In this document: in pieces, positions 2,481 to 59,860 of the stretch
Position numbering within the stretch: position 1 is the stretch's first letter
Layout: each line of letters begins with the position of its first letter
Assembly (NCBI GenBank): GCA_001821395.1
Contig: MHLM01000015.1
Span: forward strand, 2,293 to 66,292
Reading direction: 5' to 3'
Origin: Candidatus Lloydbacteria bacterium RIFCSPHIGHO2_02_FULL_50_18
GTDB lineage: Bacteria; Patescibacteriota; Minisyncoccia; Phycocordibacterales; UBA6899
DNA length: 64,000 nt
The notes under the pieces: generated by a model
The model's database searches: none
What the model was told of the DNA's origin: nothing
What the model saw: only the letters and a program-made list of their open reading frames with translations
Made by a program: the position numbers and the translations under genes

Positions 2481-2532
2481 ATCCCGACCATATGAAAAAA
2501 CACCTGATGGCGTTTTTTCATATGGTCGGGAT
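2481..2532 (-). terminator. Extended palindrome / intrinsic terminator overlapping the tRNA-Pro 3' end
   Basis: ATCCCGACCATATG-AAAAAA-[CACCTGATGGCG]-TTTTTT-CATATGGTCGGGAT. The outer arms are an inverted copy of the tRNA 3' terminus. The inner stem is flanked by A6/T6 tracts, so it could terminate in either direction. Confidence 0.6.
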
Positions 2533-2596
2533 GCCGGGAATCGAACCCGGTTCTTGCGAACCCGAATCGCAAATACTACCGGTGTACTACATCCCG
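2523..2596 (-). tRNA. tRNA-Pro (anticodon CGG), CCA encoded
   Basis: Manual fold: acceptor CGGGATG/CATCCCG, D-stem GTAC/GTAT, anticodon stem TGCGA/TCGCA with loop TTCGGGT (G37), T-arm CCGGG-TTCGATT-CCCGG, discriminator A, then CCA. Confidence 0.85.
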
Positions 2597-4959: not shown

Positions 4960-6525
4960 TTATTTATCGTTAATCGGATGTTTCTCCTTAGTTTCAACCA
5001 CCAGTGTACCATCTGAAAGACGGGCATCAAAACTCTGCCCGACGGCGATATCAGCAATACTGCGGACCACCTTTCCGCCGTGAGTGAGAATGCTATAGCC
5101 GAGTTTTAATTGACGAAGCGGATCATTTTGCTGAACCGATCGCGCAGCGGAGGCAAGCGCCTCAAGGACAAAGCGGCGTTGTTGCCTATACTGCTCAAGA
5201 AGTGTCTTGCTCGAATAATGCAGCTCATCCTTTTTGGATGATAATTGACGCGCAAGGAGAAGGACCGAATCATTGAAGCTCGTGATGAGCAGGCGAAATG
5301 GTTGAATAAGCACATCGAGCCGTGTTTCCAATTCACCGCTTACGGTTCGCAGGGCATCTTGCATCCGCCACACATCCTGCTCGAAGCGAACGATCAACCC
5401 TCGGGAGAGCGTTTGCAGTTCGTGTATCGTATGCTCCCACGACGCATTGAGGAGGATGGTCGTTGCCGTCGGGGTCGATGGTGCGTAGTCGGCAACAAGC
5501 TGCACGAGCGGCACATCCTTGTCGTGCCCGATGGCACAGATGGTAACGGCGGGAAACGTCGCAACCTTGCGCACCACGTGCTCGTTATTGAAAGCCTGTA
5601 GACTCTCGAGTGACCCTCCGCCACGAACAAGCACAAGGACGTCAATATCTTTCGATTCGAGTAGTGTGAGTGCGGCAAGAATATCTTTGACGGCTCCCGC
5701 TCCTTCAACGCGTGAATCGACGAAGACCACATGATAGCCGAATCGGCCGAGATTATTGAGAAAATCGTGAATGACCGCACCGGAGCGCGATGTCACGAGA
5801 CCGATACGTATCGGATGTTCTTTAAGCTGCCGCTTCCTCTCGGGCGCAAATAGCCCTTCAAGCTCAAGTTTCTTTTTAAGTTCGTTGTAGGCCTTCTGGA
5901 ATGCCCCTTCCCCAACGAGCTCGATCGTTTCCGCACGAAAACTGAAACGTCCCGAGGGTTTATATATCTCGCTTCTTCCCTCGAGGATGACCTCAAGCCC
6001 CTCGGCGAGCGTGATTCCCGCAAGCGCAAAATCACTCATCCACATGAAGACTGAGAGCATGCTTCCGTCTTCCGCATCGCGGAGGGAGAAGTAGACTGCT
6101 TTCCCCTGCTCCTTGAAGCTCGTCACCTCACCCTTCACGGTCGCGCGCATGCGCCAGAGCTCCCGATTCACGATGTCGAGATAGGTGCTGACGGAATAGA
6201 GCATGCGTTCCTCCTTCGGCTTTGGCAACACCATTCCATCCACAATGTAGGAAATAGCGGTAATCTCATCGGGCTTTTGTCCAAAGGCTGCCTTTGGAGT
6301 TTCCGCACCGCCGCCTTCTTTGACCATATTGAGGATTGCAGCTCCATATTGATTGTACTTCGCTTCCTTGATGCCCTTGATGGCCGTCAGCTCTTCCTTG
6401 GTCTTCGGCATTGCTCGCACGATCTCGTCGATCGCGCTGTTCGGCAGCACGCGAAAAAGCTCAACGCCTTTCTTTGCCGCCTCACTCTCCCTCCATGCAT
6501 GTAATACGCTTCGCAGATTTGCCAT
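4960..6525 (-). CDS. xseA: Exodeoxyribonuclease VII large subunit with an N-terminal HRDC domain
   Basis: OB-fold plus the XseA catalytic core (IGLVTSRSGAVIHDFLNNLGRF...VLVLVRGGGSLESLQAFNNE). The N-terminal ~75 aa form an HRDC-like domain (LFRVLPNSAIDEIVRAMPKTKEELTAIKGI...YGAAIL). Confidence 0.85.
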   Translation of the reverse strand: MANLRSVLHAWRESEAAKKGVELFRVLPNSAIDEIVRAMPKTKEELTAIKGIKEAKYNQYGAAILNMVKEGGGAETPKAAFGQKPDEITAISYIVDGMVLPKPKEERMLYSVSTYLDIVNRELWRMRATVKGEVTSFKEQGKAVYFSLRDAEDGSMLSVFMWMSDFALAGITLAEGLEVILEGRSEIYKPSGRFSFRAETIELVGEGAFQKAYNELKKKLELEGLFAPERKRQLKEHPIRIGLVTSRSGAVIHDFLNNLGRFGYHVVFVDSRVEGAGAVKDILAALTLLESKDIDVLVLVRGGGSLESLQAFNNEHVVRKVATFPAVTICAIGHDKDVPLVQLVADYAPSTPTATTILLNASWEHTIHELQTLSRGLIVRFEQDVWRMQDALRTVSGELETRLDVLIQPFRLLITSFNDSVLLLARQLSSKKDELHYSSKTLLEQYRQQRRFVLEALASAARSVQQNDPLRQLKLGYSILTHGGKVVRSIADIAVGQSFDARLSDGTLVVETKEKHPINDK

Positions 6526-6656
6526 ACGGGTATTCTACTACATGAAGCGAATTGATGGCAGAAAATTGAATTCTCCAAATATACTTCGGTATTCTCTATA
6601 AAATTAAAACTAACAAAAATACCCCAAAATGGGATATTTGAATTCTAACCAAATAC

Positions 6657-22269: not shown

Positions 22270-22345
22270 TGGTGGACCATGGGAGAATCGAACTCCCCAC
22301 CTCTTCCATGCCATGGAAGCGCTCTACCAAATGAGCTAATGGCCC
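22270..22345 (-). tRNA. tRNA-Ala (anticodon GGC), G3:U70, CCA encoded
   Basis: Manual fold: acceptor GGGCCAT/ATGGTCC with G3:U70, anticodon stem CTTCC/GGAAG with loop ATGGCAT, T-arm GGGAG-TTCGATT-CTCCC, then ACCA. Confidence 0.85.
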
Positions 22346-22640
22346 GTAGAAAGATGATAACTTACAAATGGGTTTTCTTCAATGAAGACGGGGGGGGTCG
22401 AGTCGTGAAGGGAGTCGAAGCTTATTCGAGATCGTCATCGCAAGCTTTGTGGAGATGGCAAGTCGTGTAGTGCGTTGCCGGAGGGCAACACTGCTACGAA
22501 AAAGCCAACCGGGTGTCTGGCTTTGCGGACTTGGCTTACAGCTTCAGTACGCCTTTTCGATTTATTCAGAGCGAAGCTCTTCATAAATAACGAAAAGCCC
22601 TTCGACTCCCCGCCGCAAGTGAAGCAGTTCACTTGCTTGA

Positions 22641-22694
22641 GTCCACAGGTACAAAAAAATTACGATTTCTCGTAATTTTTTTGTACCTGTGGAC
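22641..22694 (-). terminator. Perfect 54-nt palindrome / intrinsic terminator overlapping the tRNA-Ala(CGC) 3' end
   Basis: GTCCACAGGTAC-AAAAAAA-TTACGA-ttct-TCGTAA-TTTTTTT-GTACCTGTGGAC. The 3' arm includes the first nucleotides of the tRNA 3' terminus. Confidence 0.6.
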
Positions 22695-22760
22695 TCACGG
22701 GGAGTCGAACCCCGGACTCGGCAATGCGAATGCCGTGTAATACCACTTTACTATGAGCCC
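22690..22760 (-). tRNA. tRNA-Ala (anticodon CGC), G3:U70, no CCA encoded
   Basis: Manual fold: acceptor GGGCTCA/TGAGTCC (G3:U70), anticodon stem CGGCA/TGCCG with loop TTCGCAT, T-arm CGGGG-TTCGACT-CCCCG, discriminator A. Confidence 0.8.
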
Positions 22761-22805
22761 AGTAGGCGAATAGTAGCGAATTTATCCGTGGGGTGCAAAT
22801 TGTTG

Positions 22806-22849
22806 GACCGTACAGGAATCTCGGCTACCGCCGCGGGTGATATTCAATT
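22806..22849. repeat. tRNA-Ala(TGC) 3'-end fragment (tggaccgtacagga) fused to the conserved 34-nt element; attR-like scar
   Basis: 14 nt identical to the acceptor/T-stem of tRNA-Ala(TGC) at 23197-23210. It is followed by aatctcggctaccgccgcgggtgatattcaat, identical to 2247-2280. Confidence 0.6.
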
Positions 22850-23141
22850 TCGTACAGGAATTTCGACGCCTACTGCGTCAGTACCCAGTTTCAATTTGAA
22901 TACAGGACTCTTCCTCTACGAGGACAGTATACCTTTCACCACAGAGAGTACTTCTTGTTTTCTAGCTCACTTCGTTCGTAAGTAAACAATGTCGTCCGTT
23001 TACTGAGGATAAGAATCCTGCCGTACAGGAATCTCTCCCCTTACAGGGGCAGTGTCCAGTTTCGATTTACTCAAAATAGGAATTTCTCGTAAATATCGAA
23101 ACAGGCTTCGAGTCCTTACGCAAGCAATGCAGATTGCTTGC

Positions 23142-23206
23142 TACGGTCCACACCATATAAGAAAAAACTGCCTTACGGCAGTTTTTACTTTATGGTGTGG
23201 ACCGTA
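23142..23206 (-). terminator. Extended hairpin / terminator overlapping the tRNA-Ala(TGC) 3' end
   Basis: ctacggtccacaccata-aagaaaaaa-CTGCC-ttac-GGCAG-ttttta-ctttatggtgtggaccgta: GC stem flanked by A/T tracts. The outer arms are an inverted copy of the tRNA acceptor 3' strand. Confidence 0.55.
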
Positions 23207-23270
23207 CAGGACTCGAACCTGCCACCCCCGCATTGCAAATGCGGTGCTCTACCAGATGAGCTAACGGCCC
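23198..23270 (-). tRNA. tRNA-Ala (anticodon TGC), G3:U70
   Basis: Manual fold: acceptor GGGCCGT/ACGGTCC (G3:U70), anticodon stem CCGCA/TGCGG with loop TTTGCAA, T-arm GCAGG-TTCGAGT-CCTGT. Confidence 0.85.
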
Positions 23271-48161: not shown

Positions 48162-51100
48162 TTAGAACCCGGATGAGGATTCGTGATCAATTTGTAATAC
48201 CGCCTTTTTACCGAAACGATAAAGCAAGGCTGGGGTAAGAAAGAGGGAGATGACCGTCGATGACAGCAGTCCCCCGAATACCACAACCGCAAGCGGATGG
48301 AGCATCTCTTTGCCCGGCTCATCGCCATAAAGGAGAAGTGGCACTAACGCGAGCGAAGTTACCAGCGAAGTCATCAATACTGGCGTCACACGATCAAGCG
48401 TCGCACGAATGATCGTTGCGGGCGTAAAAGGCTCTCCTTCGTTTCGCACAAGCGACAGCGTGCGACCGATGAGCATGATGCCATTACGCGAGACTATTCC
48501 TGCGAGCGAAATAAAGCCGACCAAATGCGCGAGATTAATCGTCCCCCCCGTGAACCAAATGCCCAACATTCCTCCGATCATCACCGTCGGGATATTTGCG
48601 AGCACCAAGAGTACAATCGCTGTTGAATGAAACGCGCGATAGAGGACTGCGACGATCATCACAAACCCAGCGAGAAAGACGAACGCAAGTCGTCGCGTGC
48701 TTTCTTTTTGGCTTTGATAGTTTCCCTCGAAGGAAAGCGTCACGCCGACGGGGAGTTCGCCGCTCTCAAGTGCAAATTTCACTGCCTCAACTTCACCGAC
48801 GAGATCACTTCCTTGATAATTTGCGGTCACCGCAAGTACGCGCTTTCCGTTTTCATGGTCGACGCTATTGCGACCTCCTTCAATGCGTACGTCGGCAACG
48901 CTTCCCAGTGATGCCGCCTCCATAAACGGCAGCGCAATATCCCGCAACGATGCCATTGCCCCTTTTGATTCAGCATCGTACCGCGCAACAACATTTACCG
49001 AAGCGGCACCGAGTCGCACTTGCCCGAGTGTGTCACCCATGAGGCCCATCTCGAGGTCACTTGCCACACCCCCCGCAGAAAGCCCGTATTCCGCGATGCG
49101 ATTATGGTCAACATATACTCGAAATTCGGGTACAACAGTATTTTGCTGGATGCGCGGGTTTGTGATCCCCTTTTGCTTTTTCATCTCAGCAAGTACCTGC
49201 TTTGCCGCCTGATCCATGCTCTCGGAAGTATCCCCAAATACTTTTACTACAATAGGCGCACGCACTCCCGAAAGGAGCATCTCGACACGATGTGTGATCG
49301 GTTGACCGAGACTGTAATCTGCTCCACCGAAGCGATCAAGTGTTTTCTGAATATCGCTGAACAGGCGCGGGCGTTCACTCTCGAAGTATCCTGGCTTAAA
49401 TACAATCTGAATCTCGCTTGCATTCGCACTTCCGCCATGAGGATCTGCGGGCGCACGTCCTGCAATATTTGACACCTGTCGAATTCCCGGAATTTGTAGT
49501 AATGCGGTTTCGAGTTTCGTCACATAAGCGTTCGTCGCAGAAAGTGCAGTTCCAGGAGGAAGAAAAAGCATTATCACTGCTGAACCCTCATTAAACGGCG
49601 GGATGCCCTCCTTTCCTGCGAAAGAGTAAAACCCCGTAGCGAGAACAAGAGCGATCACGACTCCACCAGAGAGGAATTTTACATTAGTGATACACCAACT
49701 GATCCAAGGGGTTATTCTTTCCTTGATCGCAATAACAACCCGCGTTTCTTTTTCATGCCCTTCGAGTGATTTGTCACTCAAAAGAAGTGCAGACAGAACT
49801 GGCGTTACAGTGAGTGAGACCGCCATCGAAGCGACCAGGGAGACTAGGTATGCAGCTCCTAATGAGGCAAGGAGCCGCCCTTCGATATCCGGCATAAAGA
49901 ATATCGGAAGAAAAACCACGGTCACAAGGAGTGTGGCATAGACGATGGAATTTCGTACCTCGCTTGAGGCGCTCTGCACAACTTCTTCTCGATATTCTTT
50001 CTTTCCTGTTTGTTTCCAGATACGCAGCCGTCGAAAGATATTTTCGACATCAACGATAGCGTCATCGACGAGTTCCCCGACGGCAACGGCGATACCGCCA
50101 AGCGTCATGACATTCACTGAAAGTCCAAATTGCTTGAAGACGATCACCGTCACGAGGATCGACAGCGGGATCGCCGTGAGCGTGATCATTGTCGTACGCA
50201 CATTCATCAGGAAAATAATGAGAACAATGATGACAAGGATCGTTCCATCACGAAGTGCTCCCGTGACATTTCCGAGTCCTGCACGAATGAAATTCTCCTG
50301 ACGAAAAAGATCGGGGTGAATTTCTACTCCCGGGGGCAGACTCGCAGCAAGCGAACGAAACGTTCCATCGATTGCATCGGTCACCGCAAGTGTTTGCGCA
50401 TCTGGCTGACGAATGACGCGTAAAATAACCCCCTGATCTCCATCAATTGCACTTGATCCACGAATTGGGCTTGGTGTCTCAAGCACTGTTGCAATATCTG
50501 CCAGACGAACAACACTTCCCCCTGAGGTCCTCCCAATCGCAAGCTCACCAAGTGTTTTTACTTCGGTTGGCGCAACAAGAATTCTAATTGGATACTCTTT
50601 GCCACCTTCAACGAGAATATTGCCGCTTTTGTTTGTTATTGCTCCTTCGACTTTCGTGCGCACGTCTTCGATCATGAATCCATAGCGTCGCATACGCTCC
50701 GCATTGAGATCGATCCGCCACTCTCTGACATCGCCCCCCATGACGAGCACGTTCGCAACGCCGGGAGTCTTCAGTATCGCGGGACGTATTGTCCAGTCTG
50801 CAAGCGTGCGGAGTTGCATGGGAGTGATACTCGGATCTTTTGCGGTGATGCCGACCCACATAATCTCACCCAACAGCGAGGTCGAGGGGCCGAGTATCGG
50901 TTTCACACCGCGCGGGAGTACCGCTTGCGAAAGACGCTCCTGGACGATCTGTCTATTGCGCAGTGAGTCTGAGCCCCAAGCGAATTCAATGTTCAGTGTC
51001 GCTTGCGCGAACGATGCATTCGAACGGATGCGATCGACCCCAGGTGCCCCAAGCATTGTAGCCTCAAGTGGATTTAAGACGAGAAGCTCGACCTCTTCCG

Positions 51101-51272
51101 CAGCGAGTCCTGGACTCTCTGCAAACACGGTAACAGTCGGCTTGTTAATGTCAGGAAGGATATCCACCTTCATTGTCGACAAGCTCCAAAGACCGAGGAC
51201 CGAGACGGCTCCGGCTAGGATAAGCACGAGGTATTTATTTTTGAGCGACCAAGAAATGATTTTATTTAACAT
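48162..51272 (-). CDS. HME-RND heavy-metal efflux pump (CzcA/CusA family)
   Basis: 1036 aa, 12-TM RND architecture. The N-terminus MLNKIISWSLKNKYLVLILAGAVSVLG matches the CusA/CzcA consensus. Confidence 0.85.
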   Translation of the reverse strand: MLNKIISWSLKNKYLVLILAGAVSVLGLWSLSTMKVDILPDINKPTVTVFAESPGLAAEEVELLVLNPLEATMLGAPGVDRIRSNASFAQATLNIEFAWGSDSLRNRQIVQERLSQAVLPRGVKPILGPSTSLLGEIMWVGITAKDPSITPMQLRTLADWTIRPAILKTPGVANVLVMGGDVREWRIDLNAERMRRYGFMIEDVRTKVEGAITNKSGNILVEGGKEYPIRILVAPTEVKTLGELAIGRTSGGSVVRLADIATVLETPSPIRGSSAIDGDQGVILRVIRQPDAQTLAVTDAIDGTFRSLAASLPPGVEIHPDLFRQENFIRAGLGNVTGALRDGTILVIIVLIIFLMNVRTTMITLTAIPLSILVTVIVFKQFGLSVNVMTLGGIAVAVGELVDDAIVDVENIFRRLRIWKQTGKKEYREEVVQSASSEVRNSIVYATLLVTVVFLPIFFMPDIEGRLLASLGAAYLVSLVASMAVSLTVTPVLSALLLSDKSLEGHEKETRVVIAIKERITPWISWCITNVKFLSGGVVIALVLATGFYSFAGKEGIPPFNEGSAVIMLFLPPGTALSATNAYVTKLETALLQIPGIRQVSNIAGRAPADPHGGSANASEIQIVFKPGYFESERPRLFSDIQKTLDRFGGADYSLGQPITHRVEMLLSGVRAPIVVKVFGDTSESMDQAAKQVLAEMKKQKGITNPRIQQNTVVPEFRVYVDHNRIAEYGLSAGGVASDLEMGLMGDTLGQVRLGAASVNVVARYDAESKGAMASLRDIALPFMEAASLGSVADVRIEGGRNSVDHENGKRVLAVTANYQGSDLVGEVEAVKFALESGELPVGVTLSFEGNYQSQKESTRRLAFVFLAGFVMIVAVLYRAFHSTAIVLLVLANIPTVMIGGMLGIWFTGGTINLAHLVGFISLAGIVSRNGIMLIGRTLSLVRNEGEPFTPATIIRATLDRVTPVLMTSLVTSLALVPLLLYGDEPGKEMLHPLAVVVFGGLLSSTVISLFLTPALLYRFGKKAVLQIDHESSSGF

Positions 51273-51370
51273 ATTATTTTGTTATTCATTACTACTCCTA
51301 GCGAAGAACGTATAGAAAATTCTGATTTTATACAACGTCCGAGCGACGGAGTGGATAGGAATTCTTATTC

Positions 51371-53140
51371 CTACATTCCCATAGCCCGCATCGCCGCATC
51401 ATACGATGACTCACCCTTTTGTCCGCTATCAGGTGCTTTGATATCATCGAGTAGCATGTCTTCGGCAATCCCCGGGACAGACTTTACGATATATTGTTCG
51501 CCACGTGAGAGTCCGCCATAGACCTCAATCTTGTCACCGAGCGTACGTCCGAGAGAAACTTTCTTCGCATAGAGACGTCCCCCTAAAGAGACCGCCCAGA
51601 CATTCGGGCTAGCGCCTGCATCCCACCAAATCGACGAAAGAGGGATCTCAAGTGTTTCAGTATCAACTCCAGTGACGACGCGAAGCGATACTCCGATAGG
51701 CCAATCGACAGGTTCGAGCAGGAGCGCATCGGCCATGATAGAGCCAGTATCATCGAGAGAATTCCCGACACCGATCAATTTTGCGCGTGGCATCATCTGC
51801 GGAAAACCGGAACGTGTGACATAAAACTCTTGTCCGATTTCCGGCTTACGTATATTGCTGGGGATGCGGAAGCGAACAATGTAGTCACTACTCTGCCCCC
51901 CCGTTACCACGGCGACAGGCATGCCGGGCCCGACAAATTCTCCTACCTTTCTCATAATCGACGAGACGGTACCGCCCTTTGGTGCGACGATCGCAGCATT
52001 ACCGAGCACGCCATTCTTTACCGTCTGATACGCGGCCTCTTTCGCGGCGAGATCGCCTTCAGCCATTGCGAGATCTTGTCGAAGCATTGCGATATCATTA
52101 TCGTTCATACGCACTTGCTCAAATGATGTTTTTTCAGTATCGACCGCCATTAACTCAGTCTCACGAAGCTTATCAGCCGCCATGATGAACGACTCCTGAT
52201 CTCTATGGAGCATCGCCTTCAGGTTCATAAGCTCAAGATCCGTGAGCATGCTGCCATCAGGTATTGATGCATCGGCGAGCTTGATCGTGAGTTCAAAATA
52301 CGCGAGCCCTGATACAAGCGGGAGTTTATCCGGTGTATCAATGTCGGACAGCGTGGCAAACAAGACTGATGGGAAAGCGTCACGCAAGCGGACGTTTTGC
52401 GCACCTATCGCGTCCTTGAGCGCGACAGCAGTCCATCGTGCGGGAAGCGTTCCGTTACCGGAGAGCATCGGATAAGTCGTAGCGAGCGTCCCACGCAACA
52501 TTGCGCGAAGCGTCTGTTTTTTTGCCTCGATCATCGAAAAATTCGACCCTCCCGACACTTGCAGCATCGACATGCTTCCACCAAGTAGTGCCCGTGAAGC
52601 ATCGAGCGAACGCAAGGTGTTCTCACGAAGTTCATCAATTTGCGCAATACGCACCTTTGCATAGACGCGCTTTGCGTCAACGCTGGCTCGCGCCATCGAA
52701 ACCATTTTTTGTTCATCCGCGAGCATCGCAATGGTATCAGGCATTGCGGGCGGGACAGAAAGCATGCCAAGCACCTCACCGGCAGCAACTCGCTGACCGA
52801 CGTGCACATTCCAAGAAGAGATCGTCCCTTCTCGTGCGGGCTGAATGGGTATACTTCCCAGCGAGATAAGCTCACCCGGCCATGAATTTTCAACTCCTGA
52901 TATGTCTGCGGAACTTGTTGCTCCGGCTACAGCAATTTCGATATCAGAGATCGGACTATTTCCGACTTCTTCGGTGGCAGGATCCGATGAGTTTTTGACG
53001 GATGCGCTGACCACAGCAAATCCGATCACCATAACGATAACTCCGAAGAGTATACCAAACAATATTTTTTTATCCGCAGTCACCCACTTTATAGATCGTT
53101 GTATGTTCTCTTGCATAAAGGATAGTAAATTGATTAACAA
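51371..53140 (-). CDS. RND efflux periplasmic adaptor (membrane fusion protein, CzcB/CusB-like)
   Basis: N-terminal TM anchor, long coiled-coil/lipoyl/beta-barrel layout. Directly upstream of the HME-RND pump. Confidence 0.7.
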   Translation of the reverse strand: MLINLLSFMQENIQRSIKWVTADKKILFGILFGVIVMVIGFAVVSASVKNSSDPATEEVGNSPISDIEIAVAGATSSADISGVENSWPGELISLGSIPIQPAREGTISSWNVHVGQRVAAGEVLGMLSVPPAMPDTIAMLADEQKMVSMARASVDAKRVYAKVRIAQIDELRENTLRSLDASRALLGGSMSMLQVSGGSNFSMIEAKKQTLRAMLRGTLATTYPMLSGNGTLPARWTAVALKDAIGAQNVRLRDAFPSVLFATLSDIDTPDKLPLVSGLAYFELTIKLADASIPDGSMLTDLELMNLKAMLHRDQESFIMAADKLRETELMAVDTEKTSFEQVRMNDNDIAMLRQDLAMAEGDLAAKEAAYQTVKNGVLGNAAIVAPKGGTVSSIMRKVGEFVGPGMPVAVVTGGQSSDYIVRFRIPSNIRKPEIGQEFYVTRSGFPQMMPRAKLIGVGNSLDDTGSIMADALLLEPVDWPIGVSLRVVTGVDTETLEIPLSSIWWDAGASPNVWAVSLGGRLYAKKVSLGRTLGDKIEVYGGLSRGEQYIVKSVPGIAEDMLLDDIKAPDSGQKGESSYDAAMRAMGM

Positions 53141-53210: not shown

Positions 53211-53693
53211 TTAAGCGAAATTTGGGCTGGTTTCAAAAAGTGAAAGCCAGTTAAGAATACTTTGTCTTATTCTGTTTCGCGGTTCGTCCGCTCTTCGCGC
53301 ACGAAGATGCACAAAAACACGAGCAAGAAACGCGCGCAAATAAGCATCGATCAAACCGGTGGCGACAAGGAGGAATAATGCAATAATGACCGTCATCAAT
53401 GACAGCGTCAGAAGTGGAGTTTGGGACAGGGAAAGATACATTCCGACATGATTCATCATTGATCCAATTGCTCCCGTATCCATTGATTGTACGCATCCCG
53501 AGATCGACATACCACAATCCGAAACCTGATGCACTGGGCCGACGTCCATATCCATTTCCATCGTACTCACTTGCGCAGAAAGCATGCCGCCAAAAAAACA
53601 GAACGGCACCAATGTGACGTACCCGAGCAAGATCGTTATCGCGACAATGCGTTTCATTGATAGCAACATACCATAAAGATCGTCCGATAGCAA
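53211..53693 (-). CDS. Met-rich hypothetical membrane protein
   Basis: Two TM segments flanking a Met/His-rich loop (STMEMDMDVGPVHQVSDCGMSISGCVQSMDTGAIGSMMNHVGMY), in the metal-efflux neighbourhood. Confidence 0.4.
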   Translation of the reverse strand: MLSDDLYGMLLSMKRIVAITILLGYVTLVPFCFFGGMLSAQVSTMEMDMDVGPVHQVSDCGMSISGCVQSMDTGAIGSMMNHVGMYLSLSQTPLLTLSLMTVIIALFLLVATGLIDAYLRAFLARVFVHLRARRADEPRNRIRQSILNWLSLFETSPNFA

Positions 53694-54518: not shown

Positions 54519-54572
54519 GTGGTCAGTGAAGAATCAAGATGCAAAAACGGTGACGAGCACCGTTTTCATTTT

Positions 54573-54881
54573 CTAAAAAGGTATATCGGCAGGATTGATG
54601 TCTTCGTCCGTCGGATACTCCACCACGGGCTGTGAGGTCGAAGCGCGCGCCGTTGCTTCAGGTTTCGCGGCGTTCTGATCGGGCTTCCATGTATCGATCT
54701 GCACGGTGTGCGTCTTGCCATACTGATCGGGCTGCCGCATCTGCGACATAATCAGTTTCACGTATCGCTTTCCGTTATATTCGAATGCGTGAGGCTGAAG
54801 TGCATCGAGCTCCACACTGAACGAGATGTTTCCATACTGACCGACCACCTTCCCTTTTCCGACATAGATCTTTTCATTCAT
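54573..54881 (-). CDS. Short SSB-like protein with C-terminal acidic DIPF tip
   Basis: ~100 aa; N-terminal ~70 aa could be a beta-rich OB-like domain; Pro/Ala-rich linker; C-terminus ...TDEDINPADIPF matches the SSB C-terminal DDDIPF consensus. Start at MNEKIYV. Confidence 0.5.
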   Translation of the reverse strand: MNEKIYVGKGKVVGQYGNISFSVELDALQPHAFEYNGKRYVKLIMSQMRQPDQYGKTHTVQIDTWKPDQNAAKPEATARASTSQPVVEYPTDEDINPADIPF

Positions 54882-55020
54882 AGAACGATTATACAATGTT
54901 ATCTCCGACTAAATTTTTGCTACTGATATTCCCACCGATCGCGAGCGGGACATGCGCGCGAACCTATGATGCGAATCGTAGGGGTAGTGTATTTTACATC
55001 ACGCACATGGTCAACCGATG

Positions 55021-58000
55021 CTACGTAATGGCGTTTTCGTTACTTTTGTCATCTATGCCAAACCGATAGTAAAGGATCGGGAAAATGACCAACGTGAGGA
55101 CTGTCGAAAGCGAGAGTCCAAAAATGATCGCCCATGCGAGACCGCTCCATACGGGGTCGGTCACTATGACCACAGAACTCAGGATGGCCGTTATCGACGT
55201 CAACATGATCGGGCGAAGACGAGTCTTGCACGCTTCAACGATGGCATGCTTTGGACCCATACCGCGCGTGCGCAACTGCTCGATGAAGTCAAGCAAGAGT
55301 ATCGCGTTACCCACGACGATCCCACCCAGTGCAATAACGCCAATCATTGAGGTTGCGGAGAAATATGTTCCCGAAAGCGCGTCAAGGATCGCGAAGCCGG
55401 GCATGACTCCCGCAAAGCCGAGAATGATCGTGGTCATGATAAGTGCCGAAGAACGAAAACTGCGAAACTGTGCCACGAGAATGACATAGATCAGAAAATA
55501 CGATATCAGCATCGCCGTTCCAAGATCTCTAAAATTATCGAGGGTCATTTCGAACTCTCCGCCCCATTCGATCTTGTATATCTCATGAGTGATCTCGTCT
55601 TCAAAAGTGAGACCATAGAGGCTCCAACTCGTAAGGTGTCCGTGACCGCCAGGCAAGCGATAAGACCGAAGCGATGTGATCAGGTCTTTGACGACATAGA
55701 CCACGGACCTCCCTTCCACCTCACCAGTCACGAGGTCCATTTGTTCCTGCGCATCGTGCAAGATCGGGGTCGGACTGACGCCTACCCTTGTTTTCATGAC
55801 ACTCGAAAGCGGAACCATGACTCCGACATTGTTTTTCATTTCGATACGTGAAAGATCGGAAAGCTTTTCACGCGCGGACTTCTCGAACTGCACAACGATA
55901 GTTGTGTCTTCACGACTTTCGAGATGAGCGATCGCAATCGGACTACCAGTCGTCATGACCCGCAGCGTATTCACGACATCGGCAACAGAAAGACCCGATC
56001 GTGATAATTTTTCATGGTCGATATCCAATAATTCGCTGCTGCCTCCGGACGCTAGCGAGGAATTGATGTCGACAACGCCACGCGTCCCACGGAACAATGA
56101 CTGCATGTCACGGATGATCGCCCCGCGAACTTCCGGGTCTGCACCTTTCACTCGCGCAACCAGCGTTGAGAGCACTGGGGGGCCCGGTGGATCTTCAACG
56201 AGCTGCAAGCGTATTCCGGGTGTATCGGTGAATGCTGAAGTAAGCTTTACCCGCAATGACGTAACGATCTCTTCACTCATCATTGTGCGCGAAGTAACAG
56301 GAGTCAGATCGATCTTCATTGTCGCCTGAAACGGAAAGCTGCGCGCATCTGAACCGCGAAATAAACCGTTGAAATCGATGATGGGAGCGGCGCCCACAAA
56401 TGATTCAACTGAAACAACGTTCGGGTCTGTGAGCATGATCTGCGAGACTCGAGACGCGGCCGCATCAGTCGCGCCAAATGCCGTATTCTCCGGCATATCG
56501 AGGTACACATAAAATTGTTCCTTGTCCGCTTTTGGCAACATACGAAAATGCACGAATTGAAAGACGGGGAAGCTGAACGCGATGACTACCACAAGCGTTA
56601 CGCCGATCAATATCCGATCTTGAATCTTTTTGCTGTCCAAAATATGATGGATCAACGTCTTGTACCACAGCTCAAATTTGGAGTGTTTTTCCTCGTGCGC
56701 CCCTCGCTCGATACCGTCTCCTTCCACGTGCTCTTTAAGGAAAATAGATGCAATGAACGGAGAAAGCGTATATGCGACGATAAGCGACGCCAAGCGTGCA
56801 ACAGGTGCAAAAAATGCGATCGGCCCCATGTATGCACCCATCATCCCCGTCACCATGCCCATCGGAACAAAGACGACAACCGCAGTTATCGTAGAAAGGA
56901 ACACTCCCATACCCACCTCACCGGTCGCATGAGCAATGGCGTCGGTCCGGAGTTCTGTCTTCAATGAAAAATGACGGTGAATATTTTCGATAACCACGAT
57001 CGCATCATCGACAAGCAAACCCAAAGAAAATATGAGCGCAAAAAGGGTGATGCGGTTGATCGTCTCACCGGAAAAATATCCGGCAATGAACACCAGTGCG
57101 AGTGTCAGCGGGATCGCGGTTGCTACTACAAGTGCGGGACGCCATCCGAGAAAGAACACGAGTGTCAGCGTCACAATAAGTATCGCAAGCAAGAGATGTT
57201 CCGTGAGTTTCATGATCTCCTCTCCCGCGATCGCCCCTTCGTCGCAAGAGACGCGCACGTCGATGTTGTCGGGAATGAAATGCTGTTTCATTTCATCGAG
57301 ACGAGACCTTACGAGCGTGGCCACGTTGGTGATATTCGTCCCCTGTGCTTTTGCGAACGACAGATACACGACGTTGACGTCATTACTGATCGCATCAGGC
57401 GATTGTTTTTCAATAAGACTGATGTGATGGTCGATCACGTCATACCCGTCAATGATCGTTGCAACGTCTTCGAGATAGATCGGTGAGATGCTTCCCCCGC
57501 CGATCACGAGCTTCGAGAGCGTAGATCCGTCGATGATATTTCCGTCGATCTCGATGGGGATATTGAGTGCTGCTCCTTCGAGCGCTCCTACGTTTACGCG
57601 AAGATCATTCATCGAAATAGCTTGCGTTATGTCGCCAACGCTCATATGACGCGCCGCAAGACGGTCAGGGTTGAGCAAGACGGTCAGTTGACGCGAGTGT
57701 CCGCCGTTGATCTCGATATTCGTGATCCCCGATACCGTCTTTAATTGATCTTTGAGTTCGTATGCAAACTGACGTAGACCGTCAGGGCTGACCTCCGTGC
57801 TGGTGATCGCGAGCGTCATAATGGGAACATTCTCCGGATCGATCTGCTCGATCAGCGGCACACCGACTCCGATCTGTCCGGGGTCGATCGCGGACTGCAT
57901 CTTTTGGACGATCTCCGTCTTGCTCGTCTCAAGTTTTGTCCCGATCTTAAAGACTACCGTAACTACACTTTTTCCTCCTGAGAACGACTGCGAACTCAGC

Positions 58001-58260
58001 GTATCAACGCCAGGGATAGCGGCAATGCTATTCTCTATCTCGTTTGTAACAAGTCTTTCCACTTCACCTGAGGTGGCACCGGGATACATGGTCACGACAC
58101 GAAATGCCGGAAGCGTGATCTCGGGATTATATTGCTTTGGAGTAGCGATAAATGCGAACAGACCAAAAGCGAAGGTTGCTAATATGAGGATCAGCGACAA
58201 ATGGCGATTCATCACGAAAAAGCGCGAAATGTGCGAATAGATATTCTCTTTAGTTTTCAT
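55021..58260 (-). CDS. RND efflux transporter permease (AcrB-like)
   Basis: 1079 aa, 12-TM with two large periplasmic loops. Confidence 0.85.
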   Translation of the reverse strand: MKTKENIYSHISRFFVMNRHLSLILILATFAFGLFAFIATPKQYNPEITLPAFRVVTMYPGATSGEVERLVTNEIENSIAAIPGVDTLSSQSFSGGKSVVTVVFKIGTKLETSKTEIVQKMQSAIDPGQIGVGVPLIEQIDPENVPIMTLAITSTEVSPDGLRQFAYELKDQLKTVSGITNIEINGGHSRQLTVLLNPDRLAARHMSVGDITQAISMNDLRVNVGALEGAALNIPIEIDGNIIDGSTLSKLVIGGGSISPIYLEDVATIIDGYDVIDHHISLIEKQSPDAISNDVNVVYLSFAKAQGTNITNVATLVRSRLDEMKQHFIPDNIDVRVSCDEGAIAGEEIMKLTEHLLLAILIVTLTLVFFLGWRPALVVATAIPLTLALVFIAGYFSGETINRITLFALIFSLGLLVDDAIVVIENIHRHFSLKTELRTDAIAHATGEVGMGVFLSTITAVVVFVPMGMVTGMMGAYMGPIAFFAPVARLASLIVAYTLSPFIASIFLKEHVEGDGIERGAHEEKHSKFELWYKTLIHHILDSKKIQDRILIGVTLVVVIAFSFPVFQFVHFRMLPKADKEQFYVYLDMPENTAFGATDAAASRVSQIMLTDPNVVSVESFVGAAPIIDFNGLFRGSDARSFPFQATMKIDLTPVTSRTMMSEEIVTSLRVKLTSAFTDTPGIRLQLVEDPPGPPVLSTLVARVKGADPEVRGAIIRDMQSLFRGTRGVVDINSSLASGGSSELLDIDHEKLSRSGLSVADVVNTLRVMTTGSPIAIAHLESREDTTIVVQFEKSAREKLSDLSRIEMKNNVGVMVPLSSVMKTRVGVSPTPILHDAQEQMDLVTGEVEGRSVVYVVKDLITSLRSYRLPGGHGHLTSWSLYGLTFEDEITHEIYKIEWGGEFEMTLDNFRDLGTAMLISYFLIYVILVAQFRSFRSSALIMTTIILGFAGVMPGFAILDALSGTYFSATSMIGVIALGGIVVGNAILLLDFIEQLRTRGMGPKHAIVEACKTRLRPIMLTSITAILSSVVIVTDPVWSGLAWAIIFGLSLSTVLTLVIFPILYYRFGIDDKSNENAIT

Positions 58261-59860
58261 AGACAGTATTGCCGGAAATTGTGGTCACCACATCATCATC
58301 ACGTAAATAGCGATGCCCTGCCGTGGCAACGATGTCGCCGGATGTCAGTCCGCTTATGATCTCGATGAGCTCAGTCGACTCTGCGCCGACGGTGACCATA
58401 CGACGATGTACAACCTTACCGTCAAAGACAAATACATATACGGAACCGTACTCCAACAGAAGCGCACTGCGCGGAATCGCGACGGAGGCGCTGTGTGCTT
58501 TTTCAAATGCCACATGTGCATACGATCCGACCTTCAATGCGTGATCGCCATTTGCGATCGATAATTCCATCGTTACTTTTTTGCTCACGGGGTCAGCGCT
58601 AGGATCGATCCTGGTGATCACTGCGACAAATGTTCGCTCGGAAAGAAGATCGCTCACGATCGTTGCCGTATCTCCGACATGATAAAGCGACACACGGTCA
58701 TCCGGCACACCGATCGAGAGCTTAAGGACTGAGTCGTCGACGAGATGAAAAAGTGGCGTTCCGGGAGCAATGACCGCACCTTGTTCGACATACTTTTTTG
58801 TGATGAGTCCCCCAAATGATGCATGAATGACGCCATCCGCAAGAATGGTATCGGTCACATCCGTTTGCCCCTTTAATGCGACGATCTGCGACTGTGCTTC
58901 TGCGAGTTTTGTGTCGCGTATCCTTTCGAGCAGTATGACACTCGTCGATACATCATGGATGTTCTGCAACAGTGACTGCACTTGCCCACCGAGCATCGTG
59001 ACGTTTGTTTTGTATGAGCTGATCTCAGCACCGCTTGCGCTTGAGGCCGCGACACTTCCCGATAATACGGCGTAAGCTTGGCTCAGAACAACTTTTGAAT
59101 TCGTGAGCACCGCCACTGCTTCCGTAAGCCCCAAATCGACGGCCGACTGACTCGGATCTTTGTTCAGAATGGATCCGTGAAAATAATTTTGAAATTTATC
59201 ATTTGCAAGTTGGTATGCCATGAGTGTTTCGCGCGCAGTCATTTTTGCCGCTGTATTTCTCACACCAAGCTCATTATCAAATGTTATTTCGATACTGCTG
59301 TCTTTTCCGTTCTGCACAGAGAGAAGAGTACCGAGAATGTCACTCACCTGATCAGAAAGTATCGCGGCGTTCGTAAGCGCTGCAACGCTAGCAGTCTGCG
59401 ACGACCCCGTATCAGTTGCGCTCGGGATCGGACCACCCGACGTTTGCTCTGTACGGATCTGCTCTTTGTAATAGCGATCGATCGCAGAGACACCCTTTTC
59501 GGCGACGGCGATGCTATTGTTCAGGCCATCTCTTGTTGCCCGAGCCGTTGTTCCGTCGAGTTCAGCAAGTGTTTGAGCGGAAAAAACACGCGCTCCAACA
59601 TCAGCATATAACGCAACGATGCTACCGCCCGTCTTTGCCGCCAGATCTACCTCACGCTCCGGCTGCAGTATTCCGGTAAAACGCTCCGCATCCGAAACAT
59701 CCGCATTTACCGCGGCGGCGGTAGTGATGACCGGAATCTGCTGCACAGGAAGAACCTGCGCATTGATACGCATTATAACGAGCACAACAAATAGGAGTAG
59801 CGCCGTAATACTCACTACAGTAAAACTATGGGGGCGAATTTTTTGTATGATGGATCGCAT
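58250..59860 (-). CDS. RND efflux periplasmic adaptor (HlyD-like)
   Basis: N-terminal TM anchor, long alpha-hairpin region, C-terminal beta-barrel. Overlaps the pump start by 11 nt. Confidence 0.65.
   Translation of the reverse strand: MRSIIQKIRPHSFTVVSITALLLFVVLVIMRINAQVLPVQQIPVITTAAAVNADVSDAERFTGILQPEREVDLAAKTGGSIVALYADVGARVFSAQTLAELDGTTARATRDGLNNSIAVAEKGVSAIDRYYKEQIRTEQTSGGPIPSATDTGSSQTASVAALTNAAILSDQVSDILGTLLSVQNGKDSSIEITFDNELGVRNTAAKMTARETLMAYQLANDKFQNYFHGSILNKDPSQSAVDLGLTEAVAVLTNSKVVLSQAYAVLSGSVAASSASGAEISSYKTNVTMLGGQVQSLLQNIHDVSTSVILLERIRDTKLAEAQSQIVALKGQTDVTDTILADGVIHASFGGLITKKYVEQGAVIAPGTPLFHLVDDSVLKLSIGVPDDRVSLYHVGDTATIVSDLLSERTFVAVITRIDPSADPVSKKVTMELSIANGDHALKVGSYAHVAFEKAHSASVAIPRSALLLEYGSVYVFVFDGKVVHRRMVTVGAESTELIEIISGLTSGDIVATAGHRYLRDDDVVTTISGNTVYEN

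Follow-up and report, generated by a model that had tools for sequence, protein, structure and literature searches.

The 64,000-nucleotide stretch of Candidatus Lloydbacteria DNA analysed here (hereafter the window) carries, on its minus strand at 54573-54881, a small gene for a protein of 102 residues that starts MNEKIYVGKGK and ends TDEDINPADIPF. The protein is 100% identical to OGZ04953.1 (UniRef100_A0A1G2CUA9), an entry from a Candidatus Lloydbacteria metagenome-assembled genome (MAG) that is labelled 'hypothetical protein'. With moderate confidence, we regard the gene as a chromosomally fixed member of a phage-derived family of non-canonical mini-SSBs (SSB: single-stranded DNA-binding protein), which would be able to bind single-stranded DNA (ssDNA).

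The gene and its protein

The protein consists of three modules, which are a domain of about 67 residues, a linker and a C-terminal tip (Table 1). The core of the domain is laid out as a strand (residues 18-23), a short helix (25-31), strands at 33-35 and 38-47, a loop (48-57) carrying a D-Q-Y-G-K-T-H motif, and a further strand (58-62), followed by DTWKP. In the family alignment of 117 sequences, aromatic residues are conserved at Y6, Y16, Y40, Y54, H58 and W65, and basic residues at K4, K11, K38, R39, K42, R49 and K66. The linker of the window protein is rich in Pro, Ala, Thr and Gln. Across the family, the linkers are low in complexity, variable and rich in E, D, P, Q and A, with linker and tip together accounting for 9-48 residues (median 27).

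The tip is the most constant part of the protein. In the sub-family of the window protein it follows the motif [DE]-I-[ND]-P-x-D-I-P-F. DISDDDLPF, the tail of SsbA from Bacillus subtilis, aligns with the nine residues at its end. P101 and F102 were the only invariant columns of the alignment, and 125 of the 165 collected homologues end in PF (40 in DLPF and 31 in DIPF, plus variants with E, G, S or N), most of the others looking truncated. As a control, the 2,607 open reading frames (ORFs) of the same loci that do not belong to the family were examined for a [DE][ILVM]PF end, and none had one; the tip is far beyond chance. The mean net charge in the family is +2.7 for the domain, -3.5 for the tail and -2.5 for the last 10 residues. 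The charge pattern and the modules correspond to the logic of a bacterial SSB, of which both the disordered linker and the acidic [DE]-[IL]-P-F tip were found here. In crystal structures, ExoI and RecO bind the IPF/DIPF of the SSB C-terminus (PMC10143822).

The original prediction for this DNA had quoted the translation exactly as it was found, without giving the strand, and had described a disordered Pro/Ala-rich linker, a DIPF tip of the SSB type, and plsC and an RND (resistance-nodulation-division) pump as neighbours. All of these were recovered: the linker, at residues 68-90, has a low predicted local distance difference test score (pLDDT), D-[IL]-P-F is the predominant end among the family members, and the gene is followed by an acyltransferase of PF01553 and preceded by an AcrB-type RND pump.

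The ORF at 54573-54881 is a genuine gene under purifying selection, which is based on its low ratio of nonsynonymous to synonymous substitutions (dN/dS), the signals of a transcription unit of its own, its native GC content and its constant context. An orthologue in a second Lloydbacteria genome has 82% identity and the same RND neighbour, and comparison of the two gave an overall dN/dS of 0.073, against 0.021 when the domain is taken alone and 0.229 when the tail is, at a dS of about 1.35 (saturated). The identical protein was present on 15 contigs from several samples, in the same gene context, and the GC content of the gene is that of its neighbourhood. The gene looks like a stand-alone transcription unit, because a gap of 139 nt containing a promoter-like match separates it from the upstream RND gene, a TATAAT element lies in front of it and a terminator-like hairpin starts 5 nt past its stop codon. 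As the TATAAT is 6 nt from the ATG, there is no Shine-Dalgarno sequence, and the upstream regions of orthologues (L005, L008, L001) also have an A/T-rich, -10-like element directly before the ATG, the mRNA may be leaderless. A TTG start at 54896, which would add five codons and has GGAG upstream, was rejected in favour of the ATG because the ATG, unlike the TTG, is conserved among the orthologues.

Table 1. Features of the window at and around the mini-SSB-like gene
Feature	Position	Strand	Basis or detail
Mini-SSB-like protein, coding sequence	54573..54881	-	Complete, 102 aa + stop; identical to OGZ04953.1 / UniRef100_A0A1G2CUA9
N-terminal strand, K-x-Y-V-G-x-G-K motif, residues 1-17, MNEKIYVGKGKVVGQYG	54831..54881	-	AlphaFold2 strand 6-13; permuted segment
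Domain core, residues 18-67	54681..54830	-	Family alignment, AlphaFold2; aligns to bridge-group residues 4-51
Disordered linker, residues 68-90, DQNAAKPEATARASTSQPVVEYP	54612..54680	-	pLDDT 45-66; tail dN/dS 0.229 vs domain 0.021
Acidic SSB-Ct-like tip, residues 91-102, TDEDINPADIPF	54576..54611	-	Alignment to SsbA tail
Possible -10 element, perfect TATAAT	54888..54893	-	Putative; 6 nt before ATG, no Shine-Dalgarno
Alternative sigma-70-like promoter, TTGACC-17-TACACT	54986..55014	-	Consensus match only
Intrinsic-terminator-like hairpin, 11-bp stem, T run at end	54542..54568	-	Starts 5 nt past stop codon
HlyD-type adaptor + AcrB-type RND pair, downstream	48162..53140	-	
160-aa protein	53211..53693		No Pfam match
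HlyD-type adaptor + AcrB-type RND pair, upstream	55021..59860	-	
tRNA-Ala x3 (GGC, CGC, UGC anticodons)	22270..23270	-	Within about 1 kb
tRNA-Pro(CGG)	2523..2596	-	

Upstream of the gene are the AcrB-type RND pump and its HlyD partner, and downstream are the acyltransferase and then a second HlyD/RND pair, all on the same strand. The gene is thus flanked by two adaptor and pump pairs in a genome of the Candidate Phyla Radiation (CPR; Parcubacteria), with a 160-aa protein also lying between the pairs. Almost all long ORFs of the window are on the minus strand, as are three clustered tRNA-Ala genes and a tRNA-Pro gene.

The absence of functionally related neighbours around the window copy, together with the mainly phage-borne nature of the family, could suggest that the gene is an inert leftover from a prophage or mobile element that has decayed, and that it no longer serves the host. 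We find this hardly credible, as the dN/dS of the domain is 0.02 with synonymous sites saturated, the tip is intact, the gene has its own terminator and promoter-like elements, its GC content equals that of the surroundings, a second species and 15 contigs have the same locus, and no other phage genes are nearby. A prophage or island origin of the window gene itself was rejected on the native GC content, the lack of phage genes nearby and the same locus in the second species.

A family carried mainly by phages

A phmmer search of 1.84 billion cluster representatives returned 535 clusters at E<=1e-3, 63 of them at E<=1e-10, and a profile search of a set of 5.8 billion proteins returned 578 proteins, which were all unnamed, 'hypothetical' or spuriously named and among which none had a Pfam domain. 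On these similarities, the window protein is placed in a very large, uncharacterised and mainly phage-borne family. In IMG/VR, at least 164 confirmed relatives were obtained from two peptide patterns alone, and all full-length viral copies end in the tip, mostly as DLPF. Among species-representative genomes the distribution is patchy, comprising a small number of CPR MAGs (Lloydbacteria and Paceibacterota), one bin of Omnitrophica, one MAG resembling Bdellovibrio and some Bacteroidota. No BLAST-detectable member was found in cultured-phage GenBank records (tblastn, three queries) or in PLSDB plasmids, and the family has therefore stayed unannotated. A description of the family was not found in the literature, nor was one of phage mimics of the SSB C-terminus (SSB-Ct).

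In the Cyclobacteriaceae (Algoriphagus, Cyclobacterium), many genomes carry multiple copies of the family. These paralogues (L013-L073) consist of the domain without the tip, being either 73 aa and ending in SEES or 85 aa with a basic, KKSKP-like tail. They are found near genes for SRAP, RadC, N6/N4 DNA methylases and DUF6088, with two to three copies within a few kb at some loci, a context that may resemble the ssDNA-entry or anti-restriction regions of mobile elements. The occurrence of tip-less paralogues in such DNA-related contexts suggests that the domain works without the tip.

Two further occurrences were noted. In contigs labelled as Omnitrophica (L001-L004, L009; a WOR_2 bin and groundwater contigs), the member at 6347-6610 is directly followed by a gene for an 87-aa Smr-domain protein. 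The domain of this copy differs from that of Lloydbacteria by a dN of only 0.055, with dS saturated, and this similarity could be due to horizontal transfer between phyla or to a binning error. On a 40.8-kb contig (L154; SRR10769896_1110), a member with an ...IRAEDIPF tail belongs to an array of phage-like appearance, about 28 small genes running in the same direction, in which HNH and DUF3846 are the sole annotated genes and none of the seven neighbours tested matched PHROGs. L154 may be a CPR-associated phage built almost wholly of unknown genes. The neighbours at the CPR and Omnitrophica loci returned no PHROG annotation.

The gene context was counted at 53 non-redundant viral loci, where the gene order was strikingly constant and co-directional. 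An annealing protein of the Erf family (PF04404, phrog_155) is at position -1 in 35 of these loci and no more than three genes upstream in 40. A single-strand annealing protein (SSAP) of one of three types is within four genes in 47 (Erf in 41, Sak in 6 and RecT in 1); the place of Erf can be taken by a Sak annealing protein together with a PD-(D/E)xK exonuclease, and in a single locus by a RecT-like protein. On the other side, a replication-initiator or DnaD-like helix-turn-helix protein is at +1 in 31 of the 53 loci, and a Toprim-DnaB primase-helicase is at +2 in 30. The family is found where a phage ssb gene usually lies, and phage SSBs are often in operons with SSAPs (PMC12054835). In HK620, Sak4 depends on the C-terminal tail of the SSB that is its cognate partner (PMC5928155). 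SSAP adjacency is a feature of the phage members and not of the window copy, and the original statement that the gene is not in a replication context therefore holds for the chromosomal copy and fails for the phage members, which are in a recombination/replication module.

The erf slot was also surveyed from the erf side, at viral loci anchored on Erf (L162-L241). A small protein with a tip of the [D/E/G/N]-[LIMV]-P-F type was found a few genes from erf in 59 of 77 loci, almost always downstream (for example L188 gene 9, L224 gene 7 and L167 gene 11). The proteins in this slot belong to at least five sequence types: 18 are of the family, 19 of a second group described below (the bridge group), 4 of an insertion variant of the latter, 8 of type B, 4 of type C and 6 of other kinds. 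Such an exchange of varied small tip-bearing proteins within a single slot is what non-orthologous displacement of one function is expected to produce.

Type B proteins are 80-90 aa, with 'GAIFKNDYKK..PDYKGKA..W..SKNGKKYFS', and gave no PDB match. Type C proteins are about 105 aa, '..SREYNGKWYHNI..', and weakly match 2k50, an OB protein related to replication protein A (E 0.034); they may resemble DUF3127. Type D, the bridge-group variant with an insertion, is 120-140 aa. In the Erf proteins adjoining the family (e.g. L098:1457-2020), a variable linker is followed by a conserved module at the C-terminus, '...DIRKKYKVSKEVxxLL', and this module is a candidate receptor for the tip. SSB-like ends were also seen on larger unknown proteins of phages and Bacteroidota, at L093:10691-11734 (also L094, L095) and L012:2193-3176, which are 347 and 327 aa, have no Pfam match and end in ...DEDSIPF and ...EPDKLPF, respectively.

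When 153 loci were searched with the OB domains of the Escherichia coli and B. subtilis proteins (phmmer), no canonical SSB was found, and there was none in the 64-kb window, which covers only part of the host genome. CPR genomes are reduced, and the lack of a canonical ssb in the window, the strong purifying selection and the synteny in the second Lloydbacteria genome could together be taken to indicate that the mini version is the principal SSB of the organism, replacing the canonical OB-fold SSB. This is highly improbable, because the absence of ssb covers 64 kb of the genome only and the locus is not rpsF-ssb-rpsR or any other replication context. In addition, the family is patchy in cellular genomes and abundant in phages, which fits an accessory, horizontally acquired gene.

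Predicted fold and circular permutation

The window protein had no match at E<=10 in Pfam, NCBIfam, PHROGs or PDB sequences, so no SSB model was found for the N-terminal ~70 residues, which the original prediction had considered unlike the canonical oligonucleotide/oligosaccharide-binding (OB) domain of SSB. A scan of the 117 members with Pfam, NCBIfam, PHROGs and PADLOC identified no family either. PADLOC gave no match for the window protein and three scattered single-member matches among the 117; a single member matched PF00436, the canonical SSB model, at E 0.086, and the family profile found no SSB among PDB sequences. Weak matches to phrog_24909, a PHROGs entry with no annotated function, came from 13 of the 117 members (best E 1.9e-4) and not from the window protein. 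An early HHalign match of the family in its native order to E. coli SSB (beta4-L45-beta5, probability 19%) was rejected as noise by a domain-only test and a reversed control.

AlphaFold2, using the 117-sequence alignment, gave a pLDDT of 87-96 for residues 1-60 and of 57-74 for the tail, where it went up again at the tip (74 vs 57 in the linker). The model has strands at 6-13, 18-23, 33-35, 38-40, 43-47 and 58-62, and a helix at 25-31, and a Foldseek search of BFVD returned uncharacterised small phage proteins only. As modelled, the domain cannot be recognised as an OB fold or as any other fold that has been solved; the DIPF/DLPF end is conserved in the homologues.

A connection to other proteins was obtained through the erf slot. 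Next to erf, five proteins of about 100 aa gave matches both to the family hidden Markov model (HMM) and to the OB domain of B. subtilis SsbA (E 2e-5 to 7e-3; phmmer, 1,104 ORFs), an example being ...NGKVYYNFTVSLNDDTNQFGQNVSAFDSQTKEEREAKKKKDFIGNGKIVWTDG...DLPF. The matches of the tail-free family HMM to these bridge proteins (E 4e-9 to 1e-6) always fell into two pieces whose order was swapped, with HMM 19-62 on bridge residues 4-48 and HMM 2-19 on bridge residues 59-77. In a cut-point scan of 16 bridge proteins, the best end-to-end alignment was at the same site in 15 and a few residues upstream in the sixteenth; the optimal cut is in the helix ...QTKEE^REAK..., with a gain of 3-14 bits. HHalign of the bridge group against the family gave E 8.4e-9 over 46 columns in the native order and E 1.2e-12 over 63 columns after re-cutting, in which family residues 1-17 were moved behind residue 67. 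Other cut points scored lower (33-47), and the reversed control scored 10.7. After re-cutting, the two groups align collinearly and have motifs in common, and residues 1-17 match the C-terminal 'KxY[IV]GNGK[VI]VW' strand of the bridge group, which is at the beta4 position in a tentative alignment with SsbA. The swapped HMM matches, the common cut site and the gain after re-cutting make a solid case, by sequence comparison, for the family being a circular permutant and homologue of the bridge group.

The link from the bridge group to SsbA is less firm. When the tail-free domain of one bridge protein was compared with 177,635 distinct PDB sequences, the top two matches were both B. subtilis SsbA (6bhw and 6bhx; E 0.053 and 0.074), and residues 4-81 align collinearly with 4-83 along the entire domain (beta1-beta4). 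This relation is only suggestive. As the family is a circular permutant of a group with a weak likeness to the OB domain of SsbA, its own domain may derive from the OB fold by rearrangement and minimisation instead of being unrelated to it.

Several results weigh against the mini-SSB reading. The bridge profile, alone or with the re-cut family profile, retrieved no SSB at E<=10 in the PDB, and HHalign against SsbA gave P values of 0.049 and 0.015 (probability 1-3%), with reversed controls at about 0.45-0.5. A domain-only HHalign of the family against an SSB profile scored 12.3, level with the reversed control at 11.8; this profile had gained no diversity from a search for relatives of E. coli SSB, the matches listed all being at least 92% identical. 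By these comparisons, the family is only weakly linked to the OB fold of canonical SSB. The gene position in phages would fit a tip-bearing adaptor or decoy equally well, and the window copy is outside any replication or recombination context, between efflux-pump operons.

Proposed function and comparison with known systems

For the mini-SSB reading, which we favour, the following mechanism can be envisaged. The basic, aromatic-rich beta-domain of ~67 residues would bind ssDNA, probably as an oligomer because a single domain is too small for a closed barrel. The disordered acidic linker would keep the C-terminal D-I/L-P-F tip free, which could then dock in the same kind of pocket that recognises the C-terminus of bacterial SSB. 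Docking would recruit partners to the coated ssDNA, such as the phage Erf, Sak or RecT protein, replication proteins and/or host enzymes that interact with SSB. The Lloydbacteria copy, being a stand-alone transcription unit under strong purifying selection, would most likely be an accessory SSB-like factor that uses the network of host SSB partners. A more detailed version, in which the protein is a minimal ssDNA-binding module built on a four-stranded permuted OB remnant or alternative, oligomerises, carries the SSB-Ct tip, replaces the SSB of phages and has been domesticated in CPR bacteria as a second hub, is tentative and falls short of an even chance.

Another explanation is that the protein is a decoy or adaptor built around the SSB tip, in which the domain does not bind DNA and instead binds a protein (for example a replication initiator, helicase or SSAP) or dimerises, and the tip either titrates partners away from the host SSB or bridges a phage protein to them. 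No element of the family is as conserved as the tip, the fold is unrecognisable as any nucleic-acid-binding fold, the position in early or replication modules of phages is compatible with host takeover functions, and the rise of pLDDT at the tip hints at a defined interaction. However, aromatic residues are conserved at six positions of the domain, which is basic, and a decoy would not need a strongly conserved domain of 67 aa (dN/dS 0.02). The tip-less paralogues with lysine-rich tails imply that the domain has its own function, no further SSB was found in the phage replication modules examined, and the slot is common to other tip-bearing mini-proteins, one group of which resembles SsbA. We therefore consider this explanation unlikely. 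The original prediction had proposed an SSB paralog or mimic competing for SSB partners. This is supported in part. Its SSB-like layout stands, and a pure decoy is disfavoured relative to a real ssDNA binder by the basic, aromatic-rich domain, the basic-tailed tip-less paralogues and the position in the SSB slot.

The family appears to be new, as it is in no curated library, structure or paper found, with an SSB-like layout on a permuted scaffold that is not recognised. If its members are true SSBs, these proteins of roughly 90 aa would be among the smallest known, the 'domain + linker + tip' design of SSB would have been rebuilt on a permuted, non-canonical scaffold, and the apparent lack of SSB in many uncultured phage replication modules would be explained. 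What may surprise specialists is a ~90-aa protein in the SSB slot of hundreds of phage lineages, with the canonical tip and no detectable OB fold. Phage SSAP-SSB pairs set the portability of recombineering (PMC12054835, PMC5928155), and compact partners of Erf or Sak from Bacteroidota-type and CPR-associated phages could, if the reading is correct, aid the development of genetic tools for lineages that are hard to engineer. For CPR biology, a conserved extra protein with an SSB tip would, on this reading, point to a further level at which very small genomes control their replication and repair interactome. Several hundred 'hypothetical protein' clusters would then also receive an annotation.

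Like the family, the bacterial SSBs (PF00436; E. coli SSB, B. subtilis SsbA) have a basic N-terminal domain, a disordered linker and an acidic D-[IL]-P-F tip. The domain of the family is shorter, however (~67 aa against ~110), its strand order is circularly permuted relative to the bridge register and, on the tentative alignment, to that of SsbA, and it has no equivalents of the alpha-helix, the L45 hairpin or beta5. The bridge group (undescribed; e.g. L186 gene 12, ~100 aa, '...NGKVYYNFTVSLNDDTNQFGQNVSAFDSQTKEEREAKKKKDFIGNGKIVW...DLPF') occupies the same slot downstream of erf and has the same linker and tip. Its last strand, KxYIGNGKVVW, corresponds to the first strand of the family, KIYVGKGKVV, and it keeps the helix QTKEEREAK, which the family does not have.

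The cognate SSBs of phages (HK620 SSB with Sak4, and the SSBs of RecT/Erf recombineering systems) are, like the family, encoded in a slot by Erf, Sak or RecT and ahead of the replication genes. The C-terminal tail of the HK620 SSB is needed for loading of the SSAP (PMC5928155), and the family conserves a C-terminal tip. Those phage proteins are canonical OB-fold proteins of PF00436, whereas the members of the family are about half their size and not recognisable as PF00436.

Phage T7 offers a further parallel. Its gp2.5 is an ssDNA-binding protein with an acidic C-terminal tail that ends in Phe and mediates protein-protein contacts. It has been described as an OB-fold protein (PMC2896510), and the combination of an OB fold with a long alpha-helix in about 230 aa, as in gp2.5-like proteins, was not found in the family. 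On one contig with a family member, the Toprim-DnaB primase-helicase (L088:13087-14802) itself ends in ...EKDQIPF; as this was seen in 1 of ~35 neighbouring primase-helicases only, it was rejected as a general trait. The IPF tip of this primase-helicase, beside a tip-bearing mini-protein, recalls T7, where gp4 and gp2.5 both have acidic tails terminated by Phe.
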